NCBI GenBank assembly: GCA_040216475.1
Contig: JAVJPD010000182.1
Span: forward strand, 1-26,889
Source: Rhodospirillales bacterium
Lineage (GTDB): Bacteria; Pseudomonadota; Alphaproteobacteria; Rhodospirillales; CALINB01
DNA length: 26,889 bases
Reading direction: 5' to 3'
Shown: in pieces, positions 9,098 to 23,572 of the stretch
Layout: each line of letters opens with the position of its first letter
Numbering within the stretch: the first letter of the stretch is position 1
Made by a program: the position numbers and the translations under genes
The notes under the pieces: model-generated
The model's database searches: none
The model's input: only the letters and a program-made list of their open reading frames with translations
Told to the model about the DNA's origin: nothing

Positions 9098-10090
9098 ATG
9101 ATGAAAATAGCTATTCTTGACGATTATCTCGACGTCGTGCGCGGCCTCATCGATTGGTCCGTGCTTCCCGAGGGAACGGACATCGTCCGCTTTACCGATC
9201 ATCTCACGGACGAAGCCGCCCTGGCGGAACGGCTGGCGCCGTTCGATATCGTCCTCGCCAAGCGCGAACGAACCCCCTTCCCCCGCTCGCTGTTGGAGCG
9301 CTTGCCGAATCTGAAACTCATGGTGATCGGGCGCACACACAACCGCAAGATCGACCGTGCCGCCGCCGAGGCGCTCGGCATTCTCGTAACCGGTACCGAA
9401 CGCTTCGGCTCGTCGGCCGCCGAGTTGACGTGGGGCTTGATCTTATCCCTGACGCGCAACATCCCCGGCGAGGACCGGGCGGTCCGCGCCGGACGCTGGC
9501 ACGACGGACTCGGCAAAACCCTGGCGGGGCGCACCCTCGGCGTCATCGGGCTCGGGCGCATCGGTACAAAAATCGCACGCATCGGCGCAGCGTTCGACAT
9601 GAACGTGATCGCCTGGAGCCAGAACATGACGCCGGAAAAAGCAAGCGACGCCGGCGCCCGGTATGTCGGCAAGGAGGAACTGTTCCGTGAGGCCGACGTC
9701 GTCACCGTCCATGTGGCGCTCAGCGAACGCACGCATCACCTGATCGGCGCCGGCGACCTCAGCCTGATGAAACCGACGGCCTATCTCGTCAATACGGCGC
9801 GCGGCCCGATCATCGACGAAACGGCCTTGGTCGCCGCTCTGCAGGCGGGCGCCATCGCCGGCGCCGGCCTCGATGTGTTCGAACAAGAACCGCTACCGGC
9901 CGGCCATCCGCTTCGTAGCCTGAACAATACGATCGTGACCCCGCATATCGGCTACGTCACCGAAGAAAGTTTCAAGGGCTACTATCAAAGCGCGTTGGAA
10001 AATATTCAGGCATTTCTCACGGGCCGACCCGTGCCGCGAACGCTGAATGCGCCGGCAAACCCGCGGCACTCCTATAAAGCCGCCGGTTAA
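9098..10090 (+). CDS. D-isomer-specific 2-hydroxyacid dehydrogenase family protein
   Basis: GVIGLGRIG, NTARGPI, GLDVFEQEP, TPHIG, and an MKIAILDDY N-terminus typical of this subgroup. Confidence 0.9.
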   Translation: MMKIAILDDYLDVVRGLIDWSVLPEGTDIVRFTDHLTDEAALAERLAPFDIVLAKRERTPFPRSLLERLPNLKLMVIGRTHNRKIDRAAAEALGILVTGTERFGSSAAELTWGLILSLTRNIPGEDRAVRAGRWHDGLGKTLAGRTLGVIGLGRIGTKIARIGAAFDMNVIAWSQNMTPEKASDAGARYVGKEELFREADVVTVHVALSERTHHLIGAGDLSLMKPTAYLVNTARGPIIDETALVAALQAGAIAGAGLDVFEQEPLPAGHPLRSLNNTIVTPHIGYVTEESFKGYYQSALENIQAFLTGRPVPRTLNAPANPRHSYKAAG

Positions 10091-10173
10091 AAAAATCGCG
10101 TCTAAGTTGTATGCAATTGTTGAAGGGAAACCATCCTCCGATTTGATAATCACCAATATCTAATATACAAAGG

Positions 10174-10202
10174 TTGGCTTTACAAAAAAGACAAGTATAC
10201 TA
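10174..10202 (+). promoter_or_regulatory. Sigma70-type promoter for tctB-tctA with overlapping GntR-like box
   Basis: TTGGCT (10174-10179)-N16-TATACT (10196-10201). The near-palindrome AAGTATACTA (10193-10202) covers the -10. SD AGGGGAG precedes ATG 10232. Confidence 0.5.
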
Positions 10203-10231
10203 GGGCCAACCAATTTCAGGGGAGACTTCCC

Positions 10232-10702
10232 ATGTGGGACCGCATACTCGGGTCCGGCGTCGTGGCGCTGGCCTTAGGGTATTTATTCGCAACCTACGAA
10301 TTACCGGTGAAGGATATCGGCGATCCGATCGGACCGCAGATGTTTCCCTATATGATCGGCTTCGGCACCCTGGTCTGCGGCATTTGGATTCTTTTCGAAA
10401 GCATCTTCAAAAAGCAGGAAGCCGTCGCGGCAGCCTCCGGCCAACAAACCGACGGCTACGTTAAAAGCCGGCCGCTGGCGGCGATCGGCGTTCTGGCTTG
10501 GACCGGTGTGTATTTCACGCTGTTCGAATTTCTCGGCTTCGCCATTTCCTGCACGATCTTTCTGTTCGGCATGACGTCGTTCTTCAATCGCGGGAAATGG
10601 CTTACCAACGCCCTGGTTTCGATCATTTTCTCGTTCGGCGTTTTCTACGTTTTCACACAGCTTCTCGACGTGAAACTCGCGCCGGGTCCGCTCCCGTATT
10701 AA
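10232..10702 (+). CDS. tctB: Tripartite tricarboxylate transporter small subunit TctB
   Basis: 156 aa with about four TM segments, D.IGPQMFP motif, LGFAISCT, FTQLLDVKL. Directly upstream of tctA. Confidence 0.88.
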   Translation: MWDRILGSGVVALALGYLFATYELPVKDIGDPIGPQMFPYMIGFGTLVCGIWILFESIFKKQEAVAAASGQQTDGYVKSRPLAAIGVLAWTGVYFTLFEFLGFAISCTIFLFGMTSFFNRGKWLTNALVSIIFSFGVFYVFTQLLDVKLAPGPLPY

Positions 10703-10736
10703 CCGATGGGCCTGTATTAACCGATAGGATCGTATC

Positions 10737-12254
10737 GTGGAATTCGCCAACATTCTGGATCATGTCCTACATGGCTTCACCGTTGCCTTGCAATGGAAGA
10801 ATATCATGTTCCTCTTCATCGGCGCCTTGCTCGGCACGGTGATCGGCATCATGCCGGGCATCGGCTCGTCCGCCGGCATCGCGCTGCTGCTACCGATGAC
10901 GTTCGGCATGGACCCGATCCCGTCCCTGATCATGCTCGCCGGCATCTATTACGGCGCCATGTACGGCAACACGGCGTCCGCCGTGCTGATCAACACGCCC
11001 GGCACGGCCTCGGCCTCGATGACCACCGTCGACGGCTACCCCATGGCGAAGAAAGGCCGCGGCGGCGCGGCGTTGGCGGCGTCGGCCATCGCGTCGTTTA
11101 CCGCCGGCACCATCGGCATCCTCGGCCTGACGTTCCTCTCCATTCCTTTCACCAATTTCGCGCTCAAGTTCGGCCCGGCGGAATACTTCATGCTGATGTT
11201 CTTTTCCATGTCGGCGGTTTCCTCGCTCACGGGACGCTCCGTGCCGAAGGGCCTGTTCGCCGCCTTCCTCGGCCTGATGATCGCATCCATCGGCATGGAC
11301 CTGCAGACCGGCATGCCGCGTTACGTCTTCGACATCCCGGAATTACAGACGGGCATTTCGTTCCTGATCGTGATCGTCGGCGCGTTTGCCGTCGCCGAAG
11401 TTATGCTCAACGTCGAAAAGTGGTTCGTGGGCAAGCTCGAGCCGATCAAGATTCAAGGCAGCCTGTATCTGACGCGCGAGGAATGGAAACGCTGCTGGCG
11501 GCCGATCGTTCGCGGCGGCCTGATCGGTTTCTTCATCGGCGTGCTGCCGGGCGCCGGCGGTACCATCGCCACGGTGATCGCCTATTCGACCGAGCAAAAA
11601 TTGTCCAAGCACGGACACGAATTCGGCCAGGGCGCCATCGAAGGCGTCGCCGCGCCGGAAGCCGCGAACAACGCCTCCACCTGCGGCGCGTTCGTGCCGC
11701 TGCTGACTCTCGGCATTCCCGGATCGGGCACCACCGCCGTGCTGCTCGGCGCCTTTATCCTCTACGGCCTGGAACCCGGCGCCGAATTGTTCATCACGAA
11801 CCCCGATCTGGTGTGGGGCCTGATCGACAGCATGTACCTCGGCAACGTGTTCCTGATCATCATGAACCTGCCTTTGATCGGCGTTTTCGTGCGAATCCTC
11901 TACCTGCCGCCGGGGGTTTTGCTGTCGATCATTCTGGCGGTCGCGTCGGTCGGCATCTATTCGATCAACAACAACGTGACCGATCTGTACCTGCTGCTGT
12001 TCTTCGGTGCCATGGGATACGGTTTCCGCAAACTGCAAATCCCGATTCCGCCGCTGATCCTCGGATTGGTGCTCGGCAAGCTGATGGAAAACTCGCTGCG
12101 TCAGGCCTTGATCATCTCGAACGGCAGCCTGGAGATTCTGGTCCACAGCCCCATCTGCATCACGCTGCTGGCATTGGCAATTGCCGCCATGTTGCTGCCG
12201 ATCATCAGCGCGCGCCTGAAGATTTTAAGGGCACGAGATTCGGACGACGAATGA
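10737..12254 (+). CDS. tctA: Tripartite tricarboxylate transporter large subunit TctA
   Basis: [22 protein letters not shown]...[35 protein letters not shown]. 505 aa, GTG start. Confidence 0.95.
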
Positions 12255-12372
12255 TCCGGGATCACACCCCCATCGCGATAACCAATAAACAAACGAATGA
12301 CGACTTACGCATAAAATAAGTTTGTATCGTCCGGATTCAGAAATCCAAAACTGAAAAAGGGAGACTCATCTG

Positions 12373-13374
12373 ATGTCTTTTAAAATGAATATTCTATCGT
12401 CTTCTCTGATGGCTTTAGCCATCCTCGCCCTGACCGCCTTTGCGGTCCCGGCGCAGGCCGCCTGGAAACCCGGCGATAAGATTGAAATTCTCACCGGCTG
12501 TAAAACCGGCTGCGGCCCCGACCGGATCGCCCGGGTCCTACAAAAAATCTGGCAAAAGCAGGGCCTCGTCAAATCGCGCGTCGTCGTCGTGAACAAGGCC
12601 GGCGGCGGCAATTCCATCGCCTTGACGTACCTGCAGCAGCACAAAGGCGACGGCAATTATCTGATGTTGAGCGGCTCGGCCGTCGCGACCAGCTATTACA
12701 CCGGACGCTCGCCGATCGGCACGAAGCATCTGACGGCCGTCGCGCTTCTCATTACCGAGTATATCGCCACTGCCGTTAAGCCCGACTCGCCGTATAAAAC
12801 GGCGAAGGACTTGATTGCTCAAATCAAGAAAGATCCCAAGTCGGTTGCCATCGGCACCGCCACCAGCCGCGGTAATTCCAATCATCAGGCGATCACGCTC
12901 GCCGCCATGGCCGCCGGGATCGATCCGAATTCGATGAAGTTCGTGATCTTTCAGTCGGGCCGTATAGGGCGCACCAACCTGCTCGGCGGTCACGTGGATG
13001 CAGCCCAGTCGAGTGTCGGCGGTTTTCTCAAACATCATCAGCAAGGCAAGCTGCGTATCCTCGCCGTCAGCTCCGAGGAACGACTCGGCGGCGCCATCAA
13101 GGACGTACCGACCTGGAAAGAGCAAGGCTTCGATATCGTCGTGCCGAATCTGCGCGCCCTCCTCGGTCCTTCGGACATGACCAAGGAGCAAACCGACTAT
13201 TGGGACGGCGTTCTGGAAAAGACCGTTAAAACGGAGACCTTCAAAAAGTCCCTGATCCGGCGCCAGATGAAGGCGACCTACATGGGCCACGAAAAATTCA
13301 CGCCGTATCTCCGCAAGCATGAAAAACAGATGAAGAAGGTTCTGAAAACGCTGGGTATTCTCAAGCGCGACTGA
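12373..13374 (+). CDS. tctC: TTT substrate-binding protein TctC/Bug, copy 1
   Basis: Signal peptide ending AQA-A, VVVNKAGGG, LLGGHVD, LRILAVSS..R, VPTWKEQG. 333 aa. Confidence 0.9.
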   Translation: MSFKMNILSSSLMALAILALTAFAVPAQAAWKPGDKIEILTGCKTGCGPDRIARVLQKIWQKQGLVKSRVVVVNKAGGGNSIALTYLQQHKGDGNYLMLSGSAVATSYYTGRSPIGTKHLTAVALLITEYIATAVKPDSPYKTAKDLIAQIKKDPKSVAIGTATSRGNSNHQAITLAAMAAGIDPNSMKFVIFQSGRIGRTNLLGGHVDAAQSSVGGFLKHHQQGKLRILAVSSEERLGGAIKDVPTWKEQGFDIVVPNLRALLGPSDMTKEQTDYWDGVLEKTVKTETFKKSLIRRQMKATYMGHEKFTPYLRKHEKQMKKVLKTLGILKRD

Positions 13375-13393
13375 GGAAGCCCTTCAAGCTCAC

Positions 13394-13430
13394 AAAAAAT
13401 CCGGCAATTGCGGATTGCCGGGTTTTTTTT
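13394..13430 (+). terminator. Rho-independent (likely bidirectional) terminator
   Basis: Stem CCGGCAAT (13401-13408) / ATTGCCGG (13414-13421), with an A6 run before and a T8 run after. Confidence 0.85.
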
Positions 13431-13456
13431 GCACCTGAAATCGGCGGCCTCCCATG

Positions 13457-13487
13457 CTCGACGCTGCCGAAATTTTCATGTTAGAGT
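13457..13487 (+). promoter_or_regulatory. Putative promoter of tctC copy 2
   Basis: CTCGACGCT-N13-TGT-TAGAGT. The same 9-mer and spacing recur upstream of copy 3. Confidence 0.5.
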
Positions 13488-13536
13488 AACGGCAGTCATA
13501 AAAATCTGTTTTTAAACATTCTAAGGGAGTTTAACG

Positions 13537-14538
13537 ATGAATCGCATACTACGGAGCTCGGTCTTACCTATTGCAGCCATCGCCGGTCTGGCGCTCGGCG
13601 CCGGCGCCGGCACGGCCGACGCGGCCTGGAAACCGACCAACAAGGTCGAGATTTCCGTCACCTGCAAGCCCGGCTGCGGTCCCGACCGGATCGCCCGCAT
13701 GCTGCAGAAGATCTGGAGCGTTCATAAACTCGTCGATGCCGACGTGGTCGTGCATAACAAGGCCGGCGGCGGCGGCGCCATTCAGTTGAACTACATCAAT
13801 TCCCATCCCGGCGACGGCCACTATCTCGGCATCGCCAGCGCCAGCGCGCTGACCACCTATTACACGGGCCGCACCAAGATCGGCCTGCGCGACATGACGC
13901 CGCTTGCCCTCCTGCTGACCGAATACATCGTCACCGCGGTCAAGGGCGACGGACCGATCAAGGACGCCAAGGATCTGATGGCAAGGATCAAGGCCGATCC
14001 GCAATCGGTGTCGATCGGCACGGCGACCAGCCGCGGCAACGCCAACCACCAGGCGATCTCGCTCGCCGCCCTGCGCAGCGGCATCGACCCGAAGAAGATG
14101 AAGTTCGTCATCTTCCAATCCGGCCGGATCGGGCGCACCAACCTGATCGGCGGACATGTCGATGTCGCTCAATCCAGCGCCGGCGGCTTCCTGAACGCCC
14201 ACAAGCAGGGCAAGCTGCGCATCGTCGCCGTCAGTTCGCCCGAGCGCCTGGGCGGGCCGGCCAAGAACGTACCGACCTGGAAAGAACTCGGCCTCGATGT
14301 GGTCATCGGCAACTTCCGGGCGATGATGGGCCCGAAGGGCATGACCAAGGACCAGATCGCCTATTGGGATGGGGTTTTCGCGAAAACCGTCAAGACCAAG
14401 GAATTCCAAAAATCGCTGACCAAACGCCAGATGAAGGAAACCTTCATGAAGCACGATGACTTTATGAAGTTCATCGACAAGGAAGAAAAACAGATCAAGG
14501 AAATCCTGGACGCTCTGGGAATCCTGAAGGTCAAATAA
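13537..14538 (+). CDS. tctC: TTT substrate-binding protein TctC/Bug, copy 2
   Basis: Signal peptide ending ADA-A, VVVHNKAGGGG, LIGGHVD, VPTWKELG. 333 aa, SD AGGGAG. Confidence 0.9.
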   Translation: MNRILRSSVLPIAAIAGLALGAGAGTADAAWKPTNKVEISVTCKPGCGPDRIARMLQKIWSVHKLVDADVVVHNKAGGGGAIQLNYINSHPGDGHYLGIASASALTTYYTGRTKIGLRDMTPLALLLTEYIVTAVKGDGPIKDAKDLMARIKADPQSVSIGTATSRGNANHQAISLAALRSGIDPKKMKFVIFQSGRIGRTNLIGGHVDVAQSSAGGFLNAHKQGKLRIVAVSSPERLGGPAKNVPTWKELGLDVVIGNFRAMMGPKGMTKDQIAYWDGVFAKTVKTKEFQKSLTKRQMKETFMKHDDFMKFIDKEEKQIKEILDALGILKVK

Positions 14539-14591
14539 TTCCGCCGCGGCGGAACAAGAACCCGGCAGCCGCTTCGGCTGCCGGGTTTTTT
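14539..14591 (+). terminator. Rho-independent terminator preceded by a 16-bp palindrome
   Basis: TTCCGCCGCGGCGGAA at 14539-14554, then stem AACCCGGCAGCCG/CGGCTGCCGGGTT (14559-14587) running into a T6 tract. Confidence 0.85.
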
Positions 14592-14661
14592 GATGAATTT
14601 TTCTAAGCCGCCGCGGCCGGACCGAACGGTCCGGGAAAAGACGGCCCGGCGCATCATCCCA

Positions 14662-14692
14662 CTCGACGCTCGTCTCGACCGCGTGGTAAAAC
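14662..14692 (+). promoter_or_regulatory. Putative promoter of tctC copy 3
   Basis: CTCGACGCT-N13-TGG-TAAAAC, same architecture as 13457-13487. Confidence 0.45.
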
Positions 14693-14775
14693 TTCTCTAG
14701 CAAGCCGGAAACTAGGTACCACCCCCAGGCACCGGACGTGCCGGTTTGTTTTCATATCAACTGGAGGTAAAGAAG

Positions 14776-15777
14776 ATGCGCTTGGTGTTTCGCTCCAAAG
14801 CGTTGCCGGCTGCGCTACTGGCCGGCTTAACCCTGACTTTTCATTCGGCAACCGTCGAGGCGGCCTGGAAGCCGACCAAGAAAGTCGAAATTTCCGTCAC
14901 CTGCAAACCGGGATGCGGTCCCGATCAAATCGCCCGCTTGCTGCAGAAAATCTGGAAAACCGAAAAGATCACGCCTGTCGATACGGTCGTGCACAACAAG
15001 GCCGGCGGCGGCGGCGCGGTGCAGCTGAACTACATCAATTCCCATCCCGGCGACGGCCACTATCTCGGCATCGGCAGCGCCAGTTCGCTCACGACCTATT
15101 ACACGGGCCGAACCAAGATCGGCCTGCGCGACGTGACGCCGCTCGTATTGCTGGTGACCGAATACATCGTCACCGCGGTCAAGGGCGATTCGCCGATCAA
15201 ATCGGCCAAGGAGTTGCTGGCCCAAATCAAGAAGGACCCGGCGTCCCTGTCGATCGGCACGGCGACCAGCCGCGGCAACGCCAACCATCAGGCGATCTCG
15301 CTCGCCGCCCTTCGCGCCGGCATTGATCCCAAGAAAATGAAGTTCGTCATTTTCCAATCGGGCAGCATCGGCCGGACCAACCTGCTCGGCGGACACGTCA
15401 ACGTCGCGCAATCGAGTGCCGGCGGATTCCTGAAGCACCACAAGCAGGGCAAGCTGCGCATCCTCGCCGTCAGTTCGCCCGAACGCCTCGGCGGCGAAGC
15501 GAAGGACGTGCCGACCTGGAAGGAACTCGGCTACGACTTCGAAGTCGGCAACTTCCGCTCGGTCATGGGCCCAAGCGGCATGACCAAGGATCAGATCGCC
15601 TATTGGGAAGACGTCTTCTCCAAGACCGTCAAGACCAAGGAGTGGCAGCAGTTCCTGAATCGGCGCCAGATGGCCAATGCCTATCTGCCGCATAGTGAAT
15701 TTCTCAAGTTCCTCGACAAGGAAGAAAAGCAGATCAAGGAAGTCCTGGACGCGCTGGGAATCCTGAAGGTCAAATAA
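14776..15777 (+). CDS. tctC: TTT substrate-binding protein TctC/Bug, copy 3
   Basis: Start moved to ATG 14776 after SD GGAGG (14763-14767), giving 333 aa. About 60 differences from copy 2 over ~304 mature residues by hand count. Confidence 0.9.
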   Translation: MRLVFRSKALPAALLAGLTLTFHSATVEAAWKPTKKVEISVTCKPGCGPDQIARLLQKIWKTEKITPVDTVVHNKAGGGGAVQLNYINSHPGDGHYLGIGSASSLTTYYTGRTKIGLRDVTPLVLLVTEYIVTAVKGDSPIKSAKELLAQIKKDPASLSIGTATSRGNANHQAISLAALRAGIDPKKMKFVIFQSGSIGRTNLLGGHVNVAQSSAGGFLKHHKQGKLRILAVSSPERLGGEAKDVPTWKELGYDFEVGNFRSVMGPSGMTKDQIAYWEDVFSKTVKTKEWQQFLNRRQMANAYLPHSEFLKFLDKEEKQIKEVLDALGILKVK

Positions 15778-15798
15778 CCGGCCTTCGATCATTGCACA

Positions 15799-15835
15799 CG
15801 CCCGGCGGTCGACATCGGCCGCCGGGCGCTTTATT
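15799..15835 (+). terminator. GC-rich hairpin with weak U-tract after tctC copy 3 (terminator or attenuator)
   Basis: CGCCCGGCGG (15799-15808) / CCGCCGGGCG (15819-15828) followed by CTTTATT. Confidence 0.5.
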
Positions 15836-15879
15836 GTGTGAAAATCGACGGAACAAAAACGACACCCGGGGAGAGCACC

Positions 15880-16641
15880 GTGACAACGACTCAAGAACTC
15901 GCGGGCATGACCGCTATCGTGACCGGCGCGGCGCGCAACATCGGCCGGGCCATCGCCCTCGACCTGGCGGCCGGCGGCGCCAAGGTCTGCGTGAACGCGA
16001 ATACGTCCAAGAAGGACGCCGAGGAAACCGCCGCCCTCATCGAAAAAGCCGGCGGCGAGGCATTCGTTCACATCGCCGACGTTACCGACCCCAAGGCCGT
16101 GCAAGGCATGGTCGACGCGGTTCTGAAACGGTTCGGCGGGATCGATATTCTCGTCAATAACGCCGCCGCGCGCGAGGAATTCCCGTTCGAGGAGATCACC
16201 TTCGAATCCTGGAAAAAACTTTCCGCGATCATTCTGGACGGCGCTTTTCTCTGTTGCCAGGCTTGTCTGCCCGAACTCAAGAAATGCGGCCACGGATCGA
16301 TCGTCAACATCGGCGGCCAATCGGGCGATTGCGGCATGACCGAGCGTGCCACCATCTCGGCCGCCAAGGCCGGGCTCGCCGGTTTTACGCGCGGCGTCGC
16401 CATGGATATCGCCCACTACGGCATTACCGTGAACTACGTCTCGCCGGGCCCCGTCAACACCCAGGGCAGCATGATGGTCCGCCACGCCCAGACATCGTTC
16501 AAAAAGAAACGTCAGACGCCGATCGGCCGTTCCGTGGAGCCCGCCGAAATCGCGGCCATGGTCCGCCATCTTTGCGGCCCCAAGGCGCGTGCGATCACGG
16601 GACAGAAGATCATGATCAACGGCGGCATTCTGATGGTTTAA
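15880..16641 (+). CDS. SDR-family oxidoreductase with non-canonical catalytic motif (IxxxK)
   Basis: TGAARNIGRAIA, DILVNNAA, VNYVSPG, ITGQ.I.INGG. GTG 15880 follows SD GGGGAG. Confidence 0.85.
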   Translation: MTTTQELAGMTAIVTGAARNIGRAIALDLAAGGAKVCVNANTSKKDAEETAALIEKAGGEAFVHIADVTDPKAVQGMVDAVLKRFGGIDILVNNAAAREEFPFEEITFESWKKLSAIILDGAFLCCQACLPELKKCGHGSIVNIGGQSGDCGMTERATISAAKAGLAGFTRGVAMDIAHYGITVNYVSPGPVNTQGSMMVRHAQTSFKKKRQTPIGRSVEPAEIAAMVRHLCGPKARAITGQKIMINGGILMV

Positions 16642-16680
16642 GGGTATAGCATTAGAATCGCAGGGGAAAAGGAAAGAAGC

Positions 16681-17661
16681 ATGAAAATCGTATACTCGCT
16701 GGCTTGGGAAATCGATCCGTTCGAGCCGATCAAGGAGACCTTTCCGGGTGTCGAGTGGGTCAGGGCCAGCGCCTTGGACGGCTTCGGCGACGTGCTCGGC
16801 GACGCCGACGGCCTGATCGTCAGCGCGACCCAGTACAACGCCAAGGTCGCCGATGAAATCAAACAAAAGGCCAAGAAGCTCCGCTGGATGCAATCGGCCG
16901 CCATCGGGATCGACAATTTCGTCAAGTTCGGCATCCCCGACGGCGTAACGCTCACCAACGCGGCCGGACTCAAGGGCGGCACCGTTTCCGAACACACGTT
17001 CGCCCTGTTGATGGCGCTTTCGCGCGCGACCGTGCATATGGAACGTTTCCGTGCCGCCGGAGAATGGCAAAACGATCTGGTCCGCACCCTGATCACGCCG
17101 CTCGAAGGCCGTACCATGGTCATCGTCGGCTACGGCTCGATCGGCCAGCAACTGGGCCGCAAGGCCAAGGCGTTCGACATGAACGTGATCGCCGTCAGCC
17201 GCTCCGGCACGAGCGACGAGAATGCCGACAAGGCCGTCACGGTCGACAAACTGCTCGATGTTCTGCCCGAAGCCGACGTCGTCGCCGTGGTGCTGCCGTC
17301 GAATCCGGACTCTCACCACCTGATCGACGCCAAGGCCTTCGCCGCCATGAAGAAAGGCGCGATTTTCGTCAACACCGGCCGCGGCGCGACCATGGACGAA
17401 AAGGCACTCGTCGCCGCCTTGCAAAGCGGCCATCTCGGCGGCGCCGGACTCGACGTTTTCGAGGTCGAGCCCCTGTCCGCCGACAGCCCGCTCTGGACGA
17501 TGGACAACGTCGTGCTGTCGCCGCACATCGCCGGCACCAGCGATCGCACCTACGCCCTGTTCGTCGATCTGGTCCGCGGCAATATCGAGCGGTTTCAAAA
17601 AGGCGAGCCGCTGCGGCACGCCATCCCGGCGGAGATGCTCAAAACGACGAACGCCGCCTGA
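16681..17661 (+). CDS. D-2-hydroxyacid dehydrogenase family protein
   Basis: WMQSAAIGID, IVGYGSIG, NTGRG, GLDVFEVEPL, SPHIAG. Confidence 0.9.
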   Translation: MKIVYSLAWEIDPFEPIKETFPGVEWVRASALDGFGDVLGDADGLIVSATQYNAKVADEIKQKAKKLRWMQSAAIGIDNFVKFGIPDGVTLTNAAGLKGGTVSEHTFALLMALSRATVHMERFRAAGEWQNDLVRTLITPLEGRTMVIVGYGSIGQQLGRKAKAFDMNVIAVSRSGTSDENADKAVTVDKLLDVLPEADVVAVVLPSNPDSHHLIDAKAFAAMKKGAIFVNTGRGATMDEKALVAALQSGHLGGAGLDVFEVEPLSADSPLWTMDNVVLSPHIAGTSDRTYALFVDLVRGNIERFQKGEPLRHAIPAEMLKTTNAA

Positions 17662-17700: not shown

Positions 17701-18855
17701 TCACGGCCCCTCGTCGGAGATCTGGCGGGTGACCCGGATGTCGAACTGCTCGTAGGGAATCTTCCTGAGCGCCGCCTCGTCGACTTCAATGCCGAGACCG
17801 GGGCCGGTCGGTAATTGGATGTAACTGTCTTTTTGTATCATCGGATTGCCCGGCGAAAGTTGCTGCGCCAGCGGTTCGTAGGGCACGAAGTATTCCGCGA
17901 TGATGAAGTTCGGCATCAGCGCGCAGGCGTGAATCGAGGCCGCCATCCCGACCAGGGTCGAGTTGTAGTTATGCGGCGACATCGCCACGTAATAGGGCTC
18001 CGCCATCGCGCCGATTTCCTTGAGCTTCAGAATGCCGCCGCAGCTGCCGACGTCGGGGTTGAGAATATCGGCGGCTTCGTTCACGAGCACGTCGCGGAAT
18101 CCCGCGGTGGTGTGAATGCCCTCGCCGGTTACCACCGGCAGGGAAATGTTCGCCCGGATTTCCGCGAGCGCATCGACGTTCTCCGCCGTGCACGGCTCCT
18201 CGAACCAATAGAGGTTGAACTCCTCCAACCGCTCGGCGAGACGTGCCGCGTGATGAGGCGACAGTTTGCGGCTGAGATCGACCATGAGATTGATATCCGG
18301 GCCGACCGCGTCGCGCACGGCGCGCACGTTGGCGACGGCGTCATTTTCCTGTTTGGCGCTGACGAAGGTCCGCGCGGCGCCGGTCAGACAGTAGAATTTC
18401 ATCGCCGTGAAACCGAGTTTCGCGGTCTTCTCCGCGGCGCGGGCGAAATCGTCCGGAGTCTTGCAGCCGAACGCCCAGCCGTTGGCATAAACATAGAACT
18501 TGTCGCGCACCGGCCCGCCGAGCAGGTTGTAAACCGGCTGGTCGAGAGCCTTGCCGACGATGTCCCACAATGCGATCTCGATCCCCGACAGCGCCGAGTA
18601 GAACTCGAGCGAGGCGCGCCGCGCGGCGCCGTCGTTGAAGGCGATTTCCGTGAAATATTTGATCTGAAACGGATCGCGCCCGATCAGGTAGCGCGCGAGT
18701 TCCTCGACCATGACGGCGGTTGCGCGTTCACGATCGTGATGCGTGAACGCCTCGCCCCACCCGATGATACCGTCGTCGGTCGTAACCTTGACATAAGCGA
18801 GGTTCTTGCGGAAATCGCTTCGAAACAGAAAACATTCGACGGACTTGACCTTCAT
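17701..18855 (-). CDS. Mandelate racemase/muconate lactonizing enzyme family, acid-sugar dehydratase-like
   Basis: VKVTTDDGIIGWGE, SGIEIALWDIVGK, LLGG, metal ligands in VD / FEEP / TGE, PHN, PGLGIEVD. Confidence 0.9.
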   Translation of the reverse strand: MKVKSVECFLFRSDFRKNLAYVKVTTDDGIIGWGEAFTHHDRERATAVMVEELARYLIGRDPFQIKYFTEIAFNDGAARRASLEFYSALSGIEIALWDIVGKALDQPVYNLLGGPVRDKFYVYANGWAFGCKTPDDFARAAEKTAKLGFTAMKFYCLTGAARTFVSAKQENDAVANVRAVRDAVGPDINLMVDLSRKLSPHHAARLAERLEEFNLYWFEEPCTAENVDALAEIRANISLPVVTGEGIHTTAGFRDVLVNEAADILNPDVGSCGGILKLKEIGAMAEPYYVAMSPHNYNSTLVGMAASIHACALMPNFIIAEYFVPYEPLAQQLSPGNPMIQKDSYIQLPTGPGLGIEVDEAALRKIPYEQFDIRVTRQISDEGP

Positions 18856-18901: not shown

Positions 18902-19858
18902 TTAATCTTGAACGTTGAGATAGCCACGCGGATGCGGCGGCTTGGCAAAGGCTGCCGGATCGCACGTCGTCGGGTCGCCGTCGAGCTGACAGCGCTTGGC
19001 GATACGATCCTGGCCCGGCGGGATGGCGTTGCGGTGATGCATGACGGCGCGGTTGTCCCACATCAGAATGTCGCCCTCGCGCCATTTGTGGTGCCACTGG
19101 AACTCGGGCTTGGTCGCGTGTGCCCAAAGCTCATCGAGCAGCGCCTCCGAGTCCTCGAGCGTCAGGCCGTTGACGTAGGCGAACGGACGGCGCCCCAAAT
19201 AGAGCGCGTTGTAGCCGGTTTTCGGATGGGTGCAGACGATCGGATGGTTCGGCCCCGGACTGGTGCGGATATCCCCCGGCGGTTTTTGGTTGCCGCGCAA
19301 CTGGCCGCCGCTGTTGTAGGCGGCGTCGTTCTTGATGCTGAGGCCCTTGATGCGTTCACGCGTCGCCTCGGGCAGGGTTTCAAGCGCCAGGTACATGTTG
19401 CAAAAACCGGTCTCGCCGCCCCGCTCCGGCGCCAAGGTGCCGTACAGCACGCTGTAGCTGAGCGGGATTTCCCGATAGGAATGATCCGTGTGCCAGACGA
19501 CCTCCTTGTCGCCGAACTGGCCGATCGGCACGCCGTTTTCCTTGATGTTGGAATTGATACCGATATAGGGGTTGGTCCGCGCCTTCATGCCTTTCGGCGA
19601 TTCTTCCGGCTTCGAGCCGGGACGCAGCACGCCGAAGTGCCGGGCGAAGTCGAGCTGATCCTCGTCGGTCAATTCCTGATCGCGAATCAGGATCACCAGG
19701 TTATCCAACAGCGCCCGATGGACGACCGCGGCGGTCGCGTCGTCAATGGCCTTGACGTCGCCGCAGCGCACTTCCGCGCCGAGCGCATGGGGTAACGGAA
19801 TGACCTCGATTTGGCCGTTATGGCTCAGGCCAACCTCTTCTAGCGCGACCGTCGACAT
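18902..19858 (-). CDS. TauD/TfdA-family Fe(II)/2-oxoglutarate dioxygenase
   Basis: WHTD (HxD), GGETGF, HPIVCTHP.TG, LYLG, WREGDILMWDNR.VMH, distal R. ATG 19858 with SD GGAGG. Confidence 0.92.
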   Translation of the reverse strand: MSTVALEEVGLSHNGQIEVIPLPHALGAEVRCGDVKAIDDATAAVVHRALLDNLVILIRDQELTDEDQLDFARHFGVLRPGSKPEESPKGMKARTNPYIGINSNIKENGVPIGQFGDKEVVWHTDHSYREIPLSYSVLYGTLAPERGGETGFCNMYLALETLPEATRERIKGLSIKNDAAYNSGGQLRGNQKPPGDIRTSPGPNHPIVCTHPKTGYNALYLGRRPFAYVNGLTLEDSEALLDELWAHATKPEFQWHHKWREGDILMWDNRAVMHHRNAIPPGQDRIAKRCQLDGDPTTCDPAAFAKPPHPRGYLNVQD

Positions 19859-20031
19859 GATTCGGCCTCCCTTTGTTAAAAAAAGTTTGTTCGGCAAAGA
19901 GTTTCAGAAGATGATTCGATTGTAGCGCGTATATTACGTTTATGTAAATAACCCCCTGGCGGAATGTTCGTCTTATGATTAAGCTGGCGGCACGTCCGTA
20001 TCATCACTCTTTCATAACCAGGGAGGCGCAC

Positions 20032-20892
20032 ATGGCCAATAATATGGCCAAGGATAATGCTTGGCTCGACAAACCGTCGTTCGATTTTCTCACCATTCCG
20101 ACCGCAAAACCGAAGCCGCGCAAAGACCGCTGGACCGTGATGAGCGACCGCTCGATCCCGACCAAGTTCGTCGACGATTATTTGACGTACAACGGCAACC
20201 TGATCGACGAGGTCAAGTTCGTCGACTTCACGGGGATTCACCGGATCAGCGCGCGCACCATCGTCGAAAAAAACAAGGTGTATAAGAAATACGGTATCCC
20301 GACGTTTCCGGGCGGGGTCGCCTTCGAGATCGCCTACCTGCAGGGCAAGGTCGACGAATTTTACGAACGCGTTATCGAACTGGGTTTCACGGGCATGGAA
20401 GTCAGCACCGATTCGATGCCGGAATTGCTGCGCGAGGAACGATCCGCCCTGATCAAGAAGGGTACCGGCATGGGGCTTCAGGTCTTTACCGAAGTCGGCA
20501 AGAAATTCTTCGACGATCCGTTCCCGGCGGAAGAAGCCGTGAGGTGCATCCAGGCGGATCTCGACGCCGGCGCCGTCAAGGTCGTGCTCGAAAACACGGA
20601 ATTGATGCACTATCACCAAAACGATGCGGAAACGCTGCGCCGGATCATCGAGCCGGTCGGCCTCGAAAATCTGATTCTCGAAATCGGCCGCAACGGCTGG
20701 CCGCACCTGACCATGTGGCTGTTGCGCGAATACGGCCCCGACATCAACGTCGAAAACATCGAGCACGACCGCATCGCCACGCTCGAGGGCATGCGCCGCG
20801 GCCTGCAACGGATCATGGGCTACGAATATCTCAGCACGATCCAAAACAAGCCCCCGCTCGACCTGCACGACCTCAAGGACCAGGCCGGCTGA
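20032..20892 (+). CDS. Divergent phosphosulfolactate synthase (ComA)-family TIM-barrel protein
   Basis: KPR..WTV.SD, IDEVKF, PGG..FE.AY, LGF..MEVS, EER..LI, TEVGKK, DLDAGA..V..E, GP..N..N, LE..RRGL. ATG 20032 after SD GGGAGG. Confidence 0.85.
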   Translation: MANNMAKDNAWLDKPSFDFLTIPTAKPKPRKDRWTVMSDRSIPTKFVDDYLTYNGNLIDEVKFVDFTGIHRISARTIVEKNKVYKKYGIPTFPGGVAFEIAYLQGKVDEFYERVIELGFTGMEVSTDSMPELLREERSALIKKGTGMGLQVFTEVGKKFFDDPFPAEEAVRCIQADLDAGAVKVVLENTELMHYHQNDAETLRRIIEPVGLENLILEIGRNGWPHLTMWLLREYGPDINVENIEHDRIATLEGMRRGLQRIMGYEYLSTIQNKPPLDLHDLKDQAG

Positions 20893-20898
20893 GCTGAT

Positions 20899-22236
20899 AT
20901 GGATGTAACCCGCCGCCTCGCCCGGTTCGCGCTCGAGCTCAAGCCCGAGGACGTCCCCGAGTCCGTGCGCCACGATGCGAAACGCTCGCTGATCAACTTT
21001 CTCGGCTGCTCGATCGGCGGCGCCCAGCATGAAACCGTCGACAAGCTGACGGCGGCGACCGTACCGTTCGCGGGCCCGGCGCAGGCGAGCGTGCTGGGCC
21101 GCGGCGAACGGCTCGATATCGTGAACGCCGCCCTGATTAACGGCACCAGCTCGGCGGTGCTCGACTTCGACGCGACGCAAGCGAAGAAGACCAACATCCA
21201 CCCGAGCGGCCCGGCGGCACCCGTGTGCCTGGCGCTTGCCGAATATGCCCCCGTCAGCGGCGGCGATTTCCTGCATGCGTTTATCCTGGGCGTCGAGATC
21301 GAGTGCCGCATCGCCAACACGGTGTTCGGCGCGAAGAACCCGGGCTGGCACGTGACCAGCGTGTGCGGCGGCTTCGGCGCGGCCGCCGCCGCCGGCCGGG
21401 TGCTCGGGCTCGACGAGCAGCAACTGGTCTGGGCGTTCGGGATTGCCGCCAACCTCGCCGGCGGCATCCGCGAAAACTACGGCACCATGGTCAAAAGTTT
21501 CGCGCCCGGGGTGGCGGCGCGCAACGGCCTCACCGCGGCCCTGATGGCGCAACAAGGCTTCGTGAGCGACGACCGCGCGCTCGAGGGTTCCAAGGGGTTC
21601 GCCGCCGCCATGACCGGCGTGGCCGATTTGAAAGCGCTCACCGAGAACTTCGGCAAGGACTTCGAGATTTCCTATAATACCTACAAGGCTTTCGCCTGCG
21701 GCATCGTGACCCACGCCAGTGTCGACGGCTGCATCCAACTCAGAAACGAGAACCGCTTGCAGCCCGAGCGGATCGTACGGGTTTCGCTCCGGGTCAGCCC
21801 GAATACGCTGCTGCTGACCGGCAAGCCGGAGCCGCGAACCGGGCTTGAGGGTAAATTCAGCGTTTATCATGCCGCCGCCGCCGCGCTTATCGACGGCGCC
21901 GCCGGCGAAGCCCAGTTCACCGACAAACGCGTTCACGATCCCTCCGTCATCGCGCTGCGCAAATGCATCACGGCGCAGGCCGAGGAAAGCATCGGCAAAT
22001 ACGAAGCCTATGTGAGCATCGAACTCGATGACGGACGCAAACTCGAACGCCACGTCGAGCATGCATTGGGGTGCCTGGAAAACCCCATGAGCGACAACGA
22101 CCTCATCACCAAGTATAATGAGCTGGTGAGCGGGGTTTTCCCCGACAAACAACGCGACGAACTGGCCGAGCTGTGCTGGTCGGCCGATACTCTCAGCGAC
22201 GCCGCCGTCCTCGCACGCGCGGCGGTGAAGACGTAA
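20899..22236 (+). CDS. MmgE/PrpD-family protein
   Basis: AALINGT...LDFD, HPS, GVEI.CRI, GWH.T...G.FGAAAAA, AARNGL.AA, LEG.KGF, YK.FACG..TH, KFS. Confidence 0.9.
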   Translation: MDVTRRLARFALELKPEDVPESVRHDAKRSLINFLGCSIGGAQHETVDKLTAATVPFAGPAQASVLGRGERLDIVNAALINGTSSAVLDFDATQAKKTNIHPSGPAAPVCLALAEYAPVSGGDFLHAFILGVEIECRIANTVFGAKNPGWHVTSVCGGFGAAAAAGRVLGLDEQQLVWAFGIAANLAGGIRENYGTMVKSFAPGVAARNGLTAALMAQQGFVSDDRALEGSKGFAAAMTGVADLKALTENFGKDFEISYNTYKAFACGIVTHASVDGCIQLRNENRLQPERIVRVSLRVSPNTLLLTGKPEPRTGLEGKFSVYHAAAAALIDGAAGEAQFTDKRVHDPSVIALRKCITAQAEESIGKYEAYVSIELDDGRKLERHVEHALGCLENPMSDNDLITKYNELVSGVFPDKQRDELAELCWSADTLSDAAVLARAAVKT

Positions 22237-22247
22237 AGAGGAACCCC

Positions 22248-22814
22248 GTGAAAAGCATCCTGCTGATCGGCGACATGATCAACGATATCATCCATCCCGA
22301 CGGGCCGAACAAATACGGCGAGGAACTCGCCCGGCGCGACACCATCGCCAATACCGCAACCGTGATCGCCAAGGCCCGTGCCGCCGGCGTGCCCGTTGGT
22401 TACATCCGAGTCGGCTTTTCGCCCGATTACCGGGAATGCCCGCCGCACTCGAAAATCTTCCAGGGCGCGAAAAAGAGCGGCATCTTCAAACTCGGCACCT
22501 GGGGCACGGAAGTCCATCCCGATCTCGCGCCGCAGGAGAGCGATTTCGATATCGTCAAGCACCGCGTCAGCCCGTTTTACGGCACCGATTTGGAGCCGCT
22601 TCTCAAGGCTCAAGGCGTCGAGCGAATCTACATCTGCGGCGTTTCCACCGGCGGCGTGGTGATGTCGGTTGCCAAGGAAGGCCACGATAGAGATTATAAC
22701 ATCGTCATCATCGACGACTGCTGCTGCGCCGGCAGCGAGGACGAACACCGGTTCCTGCTGAACAATATGGCGCGCTTCGCCGGCGTAACGACAAGCGCCG
22801 AGATCGAGTTTTGA
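22248..22814 (+). CDS. Isochorismatase/cysteine-hydrolase family protein lacking the catalytic Cys
   Basis: LLIGDMIND, GTWGTEVHPDLAP, KHRVSPFYGTDLE..L, GVSTGGVV, GHDRDY..V.I.DCC. GTG 22248 with SD AGAGGA. Confidence 0.85.
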   Translation: MKSILLIGDMINDIIHPDGPNKYGEELARRDTIANTATVIAKARAAGVPVGYIRVGFSPDYRECPPHSKIFQGAKKSGIFKLGTWGTEVHPDLAPQESDFDIVKHRVSPFYGTDLEPLLKAQGVERIYICGVSTGGVVMSVAKEGHDRDYNIVIIDDCCCAGSEDEHRFLLNNMARFAGVTTSAEIEF

Positions 22815-23572
22815 ACGTAATGAAGGACTCCGACGGAGCCGTTCTCCATAAGCGTACGGATGAACGCCGCGACAGTTGGCGCCAAAAACCGGTATTGCGG
22901 GTTCTCTACGAAGATTACTACGATCGCATTCTGTCTTTTTGCGCCGACGGGCCGATCCTGGAGATCGGTGCCTCGACCGGCGGCATAAAAACGCTGCGCC
23001 CCGACGCCGTCTGCACCGACGTTCAGGTCCTGCCCTGGTTGGATTCCGTTGTCGATGCCCATTGCTTGCCTTTTAAGGATCAAGCATTTTCCAATATCAT
23101 CATGATCGACGCGCTTCATCATTTCGAATCGCCTTATGTATTTTTTAAGGATGCCCTGCGCGTTCTACCGCCCGGCGGCCGACTCGTCATGATGGAGCCC
23201 GCCATTACCCCCGTAAGCTGGATCGTTTTCAATTTTATGCATCCGGAACCCGTGGATCTCCAAGAGAACCCCCTATCGCGGCGGCAGTTGAGCGGAGCTA
23301 AGCGTGACCCGTTCGACGATGCAAACCAAGCGATTCCGACGACGCTGTTTGGCCGGCACCGCCGCACGTTCGAACAGGAATTCCCGGAATTCAAAATTAT
23401 TCACCATCAGCATTTTTGCGTTCTCTCCTATCTCCTGTCGGGTGGATTTCGCTCCTGGAGTCTGCTTCCCCGATCGGCCGCGCCGACTTTCCTGAAAGTA
23501 GAGCGCGTGCTCGATAAGATTTTGGGACCGTTTATGGCGTTCCGACTGCTTACCGTTCTTGAGCGGACTTAA
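22811..23572 (+). CDS. Class I SAM-dependent methyltransferase
   Basis: ILEIGASTG motif I, DAH.LPF, D.LHH, RVL.PGGR..MMEP. Start is either TTG 22811 or ATG 22820. Confidence 0.8.
   Translation: MNVMKDSDGAVLHKRTDERRDSWRQKPVLRVLYEDYYDRILSFCADGPILEIGASTGGIKTLRPDAVCTDVQVLPWLDSVVDAHCLPFKDQAFSNIIMIDALHHFESPYVFFKDALRVLPPGGRLVMMEPAITPVSWIVFNFMHPEPVDLQENPLSRRQLSGAKRDPFDDANQAIPTTLFGRHRRTFEQEFPEFKIIHHQHFCVLSYLLSGGFRSWSLLPRSAAPTFLKVERVLDKILGPFMAFRLLTVLERT

Follow-up and report, generated by a model that had tools for sequence, protein, structure and literature searches.

Three adjacent genes of a Rhodospirillales bacterium, encoding a ComA-like protein, an MmgE/PrpD-family (PrpD-like) protein and an isochorismatase-like hydrolase, raise the question of whether neighbouring enzymes with altered active sites have changed together. 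They are located in a contig of 26,889 nucleotides (JAVJPD010000182.1, assembly GCA_040216475.1; the whole contig is called the window here), which is contig C182 of G000, a 3.2-Mb metagenome-assembled genome (MAG) of 771 contigs and 94.7% completeness. A previous reading, made from the sequence without database searches (the sequence-only reading), had taken the coordinated divergence of the trio as the mark of a co-evolved module with new chemistry, or of a complex with non-catalytic subunits. The analysis described here indicates that the three genes, which form the distal end of a catabolic island linked to a tripartite tricarboxylate transporter (TTT, TctABC), probably encode working enzymes and do not constitute a co-evolved system. 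Judged by the alignments, each altered site characterises a wider subfamily of its own and is not a joint adaptation, and the trio is the recently assembled edge of an ordinary nutrient-uptake gene cluster.

The three open reading frames (ORFs) are on the same strand and match Pfam models over their full length. Direct reading of the sequence shows a ComA-like gene with an ATG at 20032, preceded by AGGGAGG, and a TGA stop ending at 20892, followed after 6 nt by the PrpD-like ATG at 20899. The PrpD-like TAA stop ends at 22236, and the 11 nt gap to the hydrolase gene, which starts with GTG (not ATG) at 22248, contains AAGAGGAA, a Shine-Dalgarno-like motif ahead of this start. The starts at 20032 and 22248 match the N-termini of homologues in the alignments. 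The GC content of the trio region (0.58-0.67) is host-like compared with that of the whole window (0.54-0.67), and a foreign origin was rejected on this basis. Sequence, Pfam and GC data therefore confirm the spacing of 6 and 11 bp, the full length and the host-like GC described by the sequence-only reading. The dN/dS ratios, calculated by the Nei-Gojobori method against orthologues in metagenome contigs and in G012 and G042, two genomes of the same genus, are 0.064 for the ComA-like, 0.124 for the PrpD-like and 0.113 for the hydrolase gene against the nearest relative, and range in all pairs from 0.02 to 0.08, 0.05 to 0.12 and 0.04 to 0.15, respectively, similar to those of the neighbouring enolase-superfamily gene. 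Since these ratios are well below 1, pseudogenisation or relaxed selection was rejected; the view that the substitutions are not independent decay holds, and the ratio near 1 which that reading had named as its own disproof is not seen. These data support that all three genes would encode functional, non-canonical enzymes. Because no protein of the trio reaches the curated equivalog cut-offs, their chemistry is likely unlike that of phosphosulfolactate synthase, 2-methylcitrate dehydratase and a Cys-amidohydrolase.

The distribution of the trio was surveyed around genes of the ComA-like subfamily, at 37 loci from metagenomes and at three more from genomes (L-numbers designate loci or contigs of relatives, mostly from metagenomes, and C-numbers contigs). 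The contigs of the ComA-like relatives come from marine and estuarine samples. The trio is confined to one marine Rhodospirillales genus-level clade, where it shows three architectures, and the conservation across genomes that the sequence-only reading had made its test does not extend beyond this clade. The ComA-like, PrpD-like and hydrolase genes are contiguous in the window, in G012 (gaps of 5 and 64 nt) and in L024 (2 and 52 nt). The hydrolase gene is about 1.2 kb from the PrpD-like gene in G042/L016, L022, L023 and L025; L022 and L023 are near-exact matches to G042. The annotation of L023 places in this gap an opposite-strand gene encoding a 367-aa enolase-superfamily protein, so that there the hydrolase gene cannot share a transcript with the other two. 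L026 shows the ComA-like gene, then an opposite-strand enolase-superfamily gene and then the hydrolase gene, and no PrpD-like gene. Outside the genus, ComA-like loci contain TctC genes (about 17 loci), short-chain dehydrogenase/reductase (SDR) genes (about eight), TauD genes (five) and, in several cases, a second ComA paralogue; family III CoA-transferases and LysR regulators are also found. A PrpD gene near a non-genus ComA-like gene was found only in L050, besides a paralogous operon described below, and a hydrolase gene in none of these loci. Two loci with distant ComA-like genes show other neighbours: an NMT1/SsuA-like binding protein and a luciferase-like monooxygenase in L049 (5201-9837), and two flavin reductases and two Amidohydro_2 genes in L028 (3291-9451). 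By analogy, both neighbourhoods are reminiscent of sulfonate monooxygenase clusters.

The ComA-like protein belongs to the ComA fold family: it matches PF02679 with 156 bits against a gathering score of 25.2, over profile positions 3-241 of 243, and shows a TIM-barrel fold. Its AlphaFold2 model (pLDDT 87) superposes on the ComA-derived chain 9cm1 with Z 28.5 and a root-mean-square deviation of 1.9 Å over 235 residues. A wide fold search returned ComA and then only generic TIM barrels, none above Z 14.7, and a search of the ESM Atlas returned only ComA-domain clusters. The fold is the same as in ComA, XcbB and YitD (1QWG, 1U83), with a phmmer E-value of 1.7e-32 to 1QWG, although the window protein is only about 32% identical, and its 137.5 bits against TIGR03849 do not reach the curated equivalog cut-off of 280. 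Compared with Methanocaldococcus jannaschii ComA (1QWG) and archaeal ComA, the motifs KPR, VKF, PGG-FE, E-x-S, TEVGKK, DLDAG and RRGL are retained. Where 1QWG has EGRESGKG, the window protein has ENTELM, in a loop that is also shorter than the canonical one; VDFTG is found in place of GWGTS, DR in place of DK, and G-x-x-GWP in place of the AP-x-K-x-QQ segment. The Gly-rich E-[GA]-R-E-S-G-K-G loop, which follows strand 6 and, like GWG, is conserved in archaeal ComA and 1QWG, is presumed to bind phosphate, and the roles of the other ComA residues are likewise assumed from conservation. The substitutions are shared by the subfamily: EN/S-x-E/D replaces the loop in 17 of 17 aligned members, GWG is likewise replaced (VD[FH]TG), and RESG is present in none of the six other ComA paralogues of G000. 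Members of the subfamily are few: 5.8 billion proteins yielded about 22 clusters at 37% identity or more. When genome contigs were scanned with the ComA-like protein alone, the only matches were a near-identical MAG and a Bacillaceae YitD-like gene. Of 401 genomes sampled from the order, 57 have ComA-family matches, several of them multi-copy.

ComA acts in coenzyme M or sulfolactate biosynthesis, whereas the window gene is in a catabolic TTT setting and no ComB was found: PF04029 has no match in G000 (94.7% complete), with a control search positive in seven of 14 genomes. Both points led us to rule out coenzyme M or sulfolactate biosynthesis. G000 also contains three matches to TIGR03845 (sulfopyruvate-decarboxylase-alpha-like) of 79-111 bits, below the cut-off of 148, which are thiamine pyrophosphate enzymes located at C612:125-592, C632:3772-4224 and C266:2251-2718. 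From its retained and replaced motifs, the ComA-like protein would keep the Mg2+/enolate chemistry beside a carboxylate and would no longer bind a phosphorylated substrate. Such a loss fits the uptake of free acids by periplasmic binding proteins and the lack of both a kinase and ComB. In the literature on PF02679 and on ComA with PrpD or with isochorismatase, no biochemical work on the subfamilies of the trio was found.

The PrpD-like protein is within the MmgE/PrpD superfamily, in the branch of cis-aconitate decarboxylase (CAD) and iminodisuccinate (IDS) epimerase, since it contains both domains (MmgE_PrpD_N, 225 bits; MmgE_PrpD_C, 137 bits) and a His/His/Lys/Lys core. As in IDS epimerase (2HP0) and CAD/IRG1 (6R6U/6R6T, 7BR9), both domains are full length. 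The closest PDB entry is 2HP0 (155 bits), followed by CAD with about 120 bits, and both show, by eye, roughly one third identity to the window protein. True PrpD, the 2-methylcitrate dehydratase, is distant: Escherichia coli PrpD (1SZQ) matches with only 22 bits, and the equivalog cut-offs of TIGR02330 (34.5 of 458 bits), NF006943 (41.5 of 575) and NF042438 (48.2 of 950) are missed. The CAD residues Asp93, Thr97, His103, His159, Lys207 and Lys272 correspond to Asp89, Thr93, His101, His151, Lys199 and Lys263; the two His and two Lys of this list are those of the core. The remaining pocket residues of CAD, His277 and Tyr318, are not matched: the equivalent of His277 is Gly268, and the region of Tyr318 aligns to Leu, in an alignment that is uncertain near this latter site. 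The window protein shows DFDAT in place of the usual DFDDT and KSFAPG in place of the usual KxxHxG. More than 5,000 clusters of homologues were found at E <=1e-40, and an alignment of the window protein with the 119 closest clusters (120 sequences) shows perfect covariation between positions 92 and 202: 102 sequences have Asp/His, 10 have Ala/Ala, and eight have Ser, Thr or Ala with Thr. The Ala/Ala sequences are the window protein and its orthologues, and those with Thr form a sister clade, of which no member was found in genome samples at the order and phylum levels. The Asp/His pair is presumably not among the catalytic residues of CAD. On this alignment, it may mark a switch of substrate specificity, and the PrpD-like enzyme would have an altered pocket and remain competent in catalysis.

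The hydrolase matches PF00857 with 144 bits over the whole profile (1-175 of 175), its best PDB match is YecD (1J2R), and it scores 86 bits against PRK11440, whose cut-off of 195 is not reached. It has Asp9 and Lys104, and Val137 is at the position of the nucleophilic Cys, so that the Asp-Lys-Cys triad is incomplete. This triad, which defines the cysteine hydrolases RutB, BiuH, PncA and CSHase, is thus not that of the window hydrolase. At E <=1e-15, 2,673 clusters of homologues were found. The alignment contains 122 sequences: the window protein, the 120 closest clusters (60-91% identity) and one G000 paralogue; few of the clusters carry source names, which are Rhodospirillaceae, Betaproteobacteria or Burkholderiales. 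In the Cys column, 87 sequences have Ala, 34 have Val and one has Cys, so that 121 of 122 have no Cys, while Lys is conserved in 122 and Asp in 121. The Cys-less subfamily also shows an invariant D-C-C(-C/A) motif at residues 157-160, in which D-C is present in 122 of 122 sequences. Like the window protein, YecD-like proteins, PhzD and EntB combine the isochorismatase fold and the catalytic Asp and Lys with no nucleophilic Cys; we take YecD and PhzD to have Gly at this position, and the window hydrolase differs from all three in its Val/Ala at the Cys position and its D-C-C motif. Matches to the EntB and PhzD structures 2FQ1, 1NF8 and 1NF9 are weak (28-33 bits) and share the Cys-less Asp/Lys arrangement. 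These residues point to an Asp/Lys enzyme which would be unable to form a thioester, as the isochorismatases proper. In three other alphaproteobacterial genomes, no ComA or PrpD gene is found within about 9 kb of hydrolase orthologues with 53-59% identity.

The trio is preceded by a long island of transport and dehydrogenase genes (Table 1). The upstream island is syntenic with L022 and L023. Its TctA gene is the ORF at 10737-12254, recognised by tblastn to relatives and 85% identical in L022/L023; the frame compared with Pfam, 10793-12319, matched no family. The enolase-superfamily gene scores 269 bits against the NF010624 cut-off of 311 and is syntenic across all close relatives. Only the window and G012 have a TauD gene divergent from the ComA-like gene; this gene is a lineage-specific insertion, and none is found between the enolase-like and ComA-like genes of G042, L024, L025 and L027. 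In the G012 orthologue (L015:5238-6219) the reading frame shifts near residue 94, which splits the gene over two frames and reflects either pseudogenisation or a fault of the assembly. Downstream, the methyltransferase-like ORF has an ATG 5 nt past the hydrolase stop; as listed, it starts with a TTG at 22811. This ORF is outside the conserved synteny: G012, G042 and the metagenome relatives all lack a counterpart, and in L023 a glycosyltransferase gene takes its place after the hydrolase gene.

Table 1. Genes of the trio and of its surroundings in the window.
Feature	Positions	Strand	Evidence and remarks
ComA-like protein, 286 aa	20032..20892	+	PF02679, 156 bits; rare proteobacterial subfamily with ENxEL for the canonical loop
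MmgE/PrpD-family protein, 445 aa	20899..22236	+	MmgE_PrpD_N and MmgE_PrpD_C; nearest to IDS-epimerase/CAD branch; Ala92/Ala202
Isochorismatase-family hydrolase, 188 aa, GTG start	22248..22814	+	PF00857, 144 bits; Asp9, Lys104, Val137
TauD/TfdA-family Fe(II)/2-oxoglutarate dioxygenase	18902..19897	-	Pfam, 210 bits; WHTDH and later His; divergent from ComA-like gene
Enolase-superfamily acid-sugar-type dehydratase, galactonate-dehydratase-like	17701..18855	-	Pfam MR_MLE_C/N; conserved divergent neighbour of ComA-like gene
Upstream island: 2-hydroxyacid dehydrogenase, TctB, TctA, three TctC, SDR, second 2-hydroxyacid dehydrogenase	9098..17661	+	Pfam, except TctA
Class I S-adenosylmethionine methyltransferase-like ORF	22820..23572	+	Weak Methyltransf_11 match, 35.7 bits

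Counts made with the window queries show about 37 TauD, 31 PrpD and 23 TctA copies in G000, 24 SDR, at least 15 TctC, seven ComA and only two isochorismatase-family genes. The expansion of TauD, MmgE/PrpD and TctA is extreme for a genome of 3.2 Mb. A paralogous same-strand operon, containing PrpD, SDR, two ComA genes and an enolase-superfamily gene in this order, is located at C728:610-4287 in G000 and at L021:5152-10422 (contig C149 of G012). Its enolase-family protein is 64% identical to that of the window, ComA is 47% and PrpD only 26% identical, which suggests that the recurring module of the genus consists of ComA, enolase-superfamily dehydratase, SDR and PrpD. Several TctC genes, neighbours of the PrpD and ComA families and many paralogous cassettes per genome are also found in proteobacterial TTT-linked islands with PrpD/Bug expansions and in the Tct cassettes of the SAR11 flexible genome (PMC11796062); the window differs in its gene combination and its rare ComA-like subfamily, which have no characterised representative. 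The island is best read as one of many cassettes in a large transporter-linked repertoire of acid catabolism. Its durable unit comprises the TTT transporter, the dehydrogenases, the enolase-superfamily dehydratase and the translationally coupled ComA-like/PrpD-like pair; the hydrolase gene is at the variable edge of the island and is tightly linked only where the opposite-strand gene is absent.

A co-evolved three-enzyme module or complex, in which the sites were altered together for a joint chemistry or some of the subunits are non-catalytic scaffolds, would agree with the spacing of the genes, with the purifying selection on all three and with the failure of all three to reach equivalog cut-offs. 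It is nevertheless very improbable, because the trio is found in a single clade, its architecture varies even there, including loss of the PrpD-like gene and splitting of the supposed operon by an opposite-strand gene, and each substitution is older than the association. What the sequence-only reading had said of missing residues is true in part, for the ComA loop, the PrpD Asp/His pair and the hydrolase Cys. Catalytic-type residues (Glu/Lys, His/Lys and Asp/Lys, respectively) are kept in all three proteins, which also speaks against non-catalytic subunits. The coordinated divergence proposed there fails because each change is subfamily-wide and is found without the other two genes. Some observations weigh against treating the trio as separate enzymes at the end of an island. 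The gap between the ComA-like and PrpD-like genes is 2-10 nt in five of six clade lineages and both genes are also adjacent in two unrelated loci, so a functional partnership between them is likely and these genes are not wholly independent. In addition, the hydrolase gene is near the ComA-like gene cluster in every close relative whose contig extends that far, as a module would also have it. The probable reading is still that the trio encodes working enzymes and lies at the far end of a TTT island, and two proposals on the chemistry of this island were compared.

According to the first proposal, the cassette would act on organosulfonates: the ComA-like enzyme would reverse the ComA chemistry, or apply it to a substrate that is not phosphorylated, with sulfite released from or added to a sulfo-carboxylate imported by the TTT system, and TauD-type or flavin monooxygenases would be an alternative means of desulfonation. 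The only known ComA-fold chemistry, in ComA and XcbB, is the addition of sulfite to an activated alkene (PMC9457059), and ComA genes flank a TTT transporter in the SAR11 pangenome (PMC11796062). The marine origin of the contigs, the five loci with TauD beside ComA-like genes, the SsuA-like and luciferase-like genes of L049 and the flavin reductases of L028 are in agreement. However, most close relatives have no TauD, the 37 copies in G000 make its adjacency weak evidence, and neither a sulfite exporter nor a sulfite dehydrogenase was seen within the window. Furthermore, the TauD and luciferase-like families act on many non-sulfonate substrates. A sulfonate substrate finds weak support in the neighbouring TauD, SsuD-like and flavin-reductase genes and in what is known of ComA chemistry, and the proposal as a whole is unlikely. 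The other proposal is a sulfur-free catabolism of acid sugars or hydroxy-polycarboxylates, in which a 2-keto-3-deoxy acid, produced by the enolase-superfamily dehydratase, would be the substrate of the ComA-like TIM barrel, acting as a metal-dependent lyase or aldolase. A galactonate-dehydratase-like gene invariably neighbours the ComA-like gene in divergent orientation and is found again in the paralogous operon and in contig C310, dehydrogenase genes flank these genes, and no canonical aldolase was seen among the annotated ORFs of the island. We know of no ComA-fold aldolase, however, and matches to DRE-TIM lyases are those of a generic TIM barrel (Z <=14.7, against 28.5 for ComA), so that this proposal is quite improbable.

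For the island read as a TTT-linked catabolic cassette, a scheme can be proposed in which the substrate and the order of reactions are conjectural and are built on the observed gene anatomy, selection, distribution and residue patterns. The TTT system would import a non-phosphorylated hydroxy- or sulfo-polycarboxylate, which would then be oxidised and dehydrated. The ComA-like enzyme, using the shared acidic and Lys residues as Mg2+/enolate machinery and having lost the presumed Gly-rich phosphate loop, could catalyse a beta-elimination or conjugate addition beside a carboxylate. The PrpD-like enzyme would dehydrate, isomerise or decarboxylate the resulting unsaturated polycarboxylate, and the Cys-less hydrolase would cleave an ether or ester, not an amide.

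A rather unlikely but more far-reaching extension is that the TctC-linked ENxEL subfamily represents a new enzyme class, which would act on non-phosphorylated enol-ether or sulfo-carboxylates by conjugate addition or beta-elimination of the ComA type, e.g. with release of sulfite. In this genus it would cooperate with the enzyme of the Asp/His-less PrpD clade and possibly with the hydrolase as a Cys-less isochorismatase-like vinyl-ether hydrolase. If true, marine heterotrophs would possess a desulfonation or polycarboxylate route that has not been described; the co-evolved trio, had it held, would have been a new multi-enzyme system. The novelty of the locus is in the uncharacterised ComA-fold subfamily and not in the arrangement of three genes. 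This subfamily is nearly always found beside TctC and is labelled phosphosulfolactate synthase in databases, despite having no canonical loop and no ComB, and the hydrolase belongs to a very large subfamily labelled cysteine hydrolase that has no cysteine nucleophile. The ComA-like subfamily, the PrpD clade defined by the Asp/His positions and the Cys-less hydrolases are annotation traps and, at the same time, reasonable candidates in the search for new enzymes of the marine carbon and sulfur cycles.

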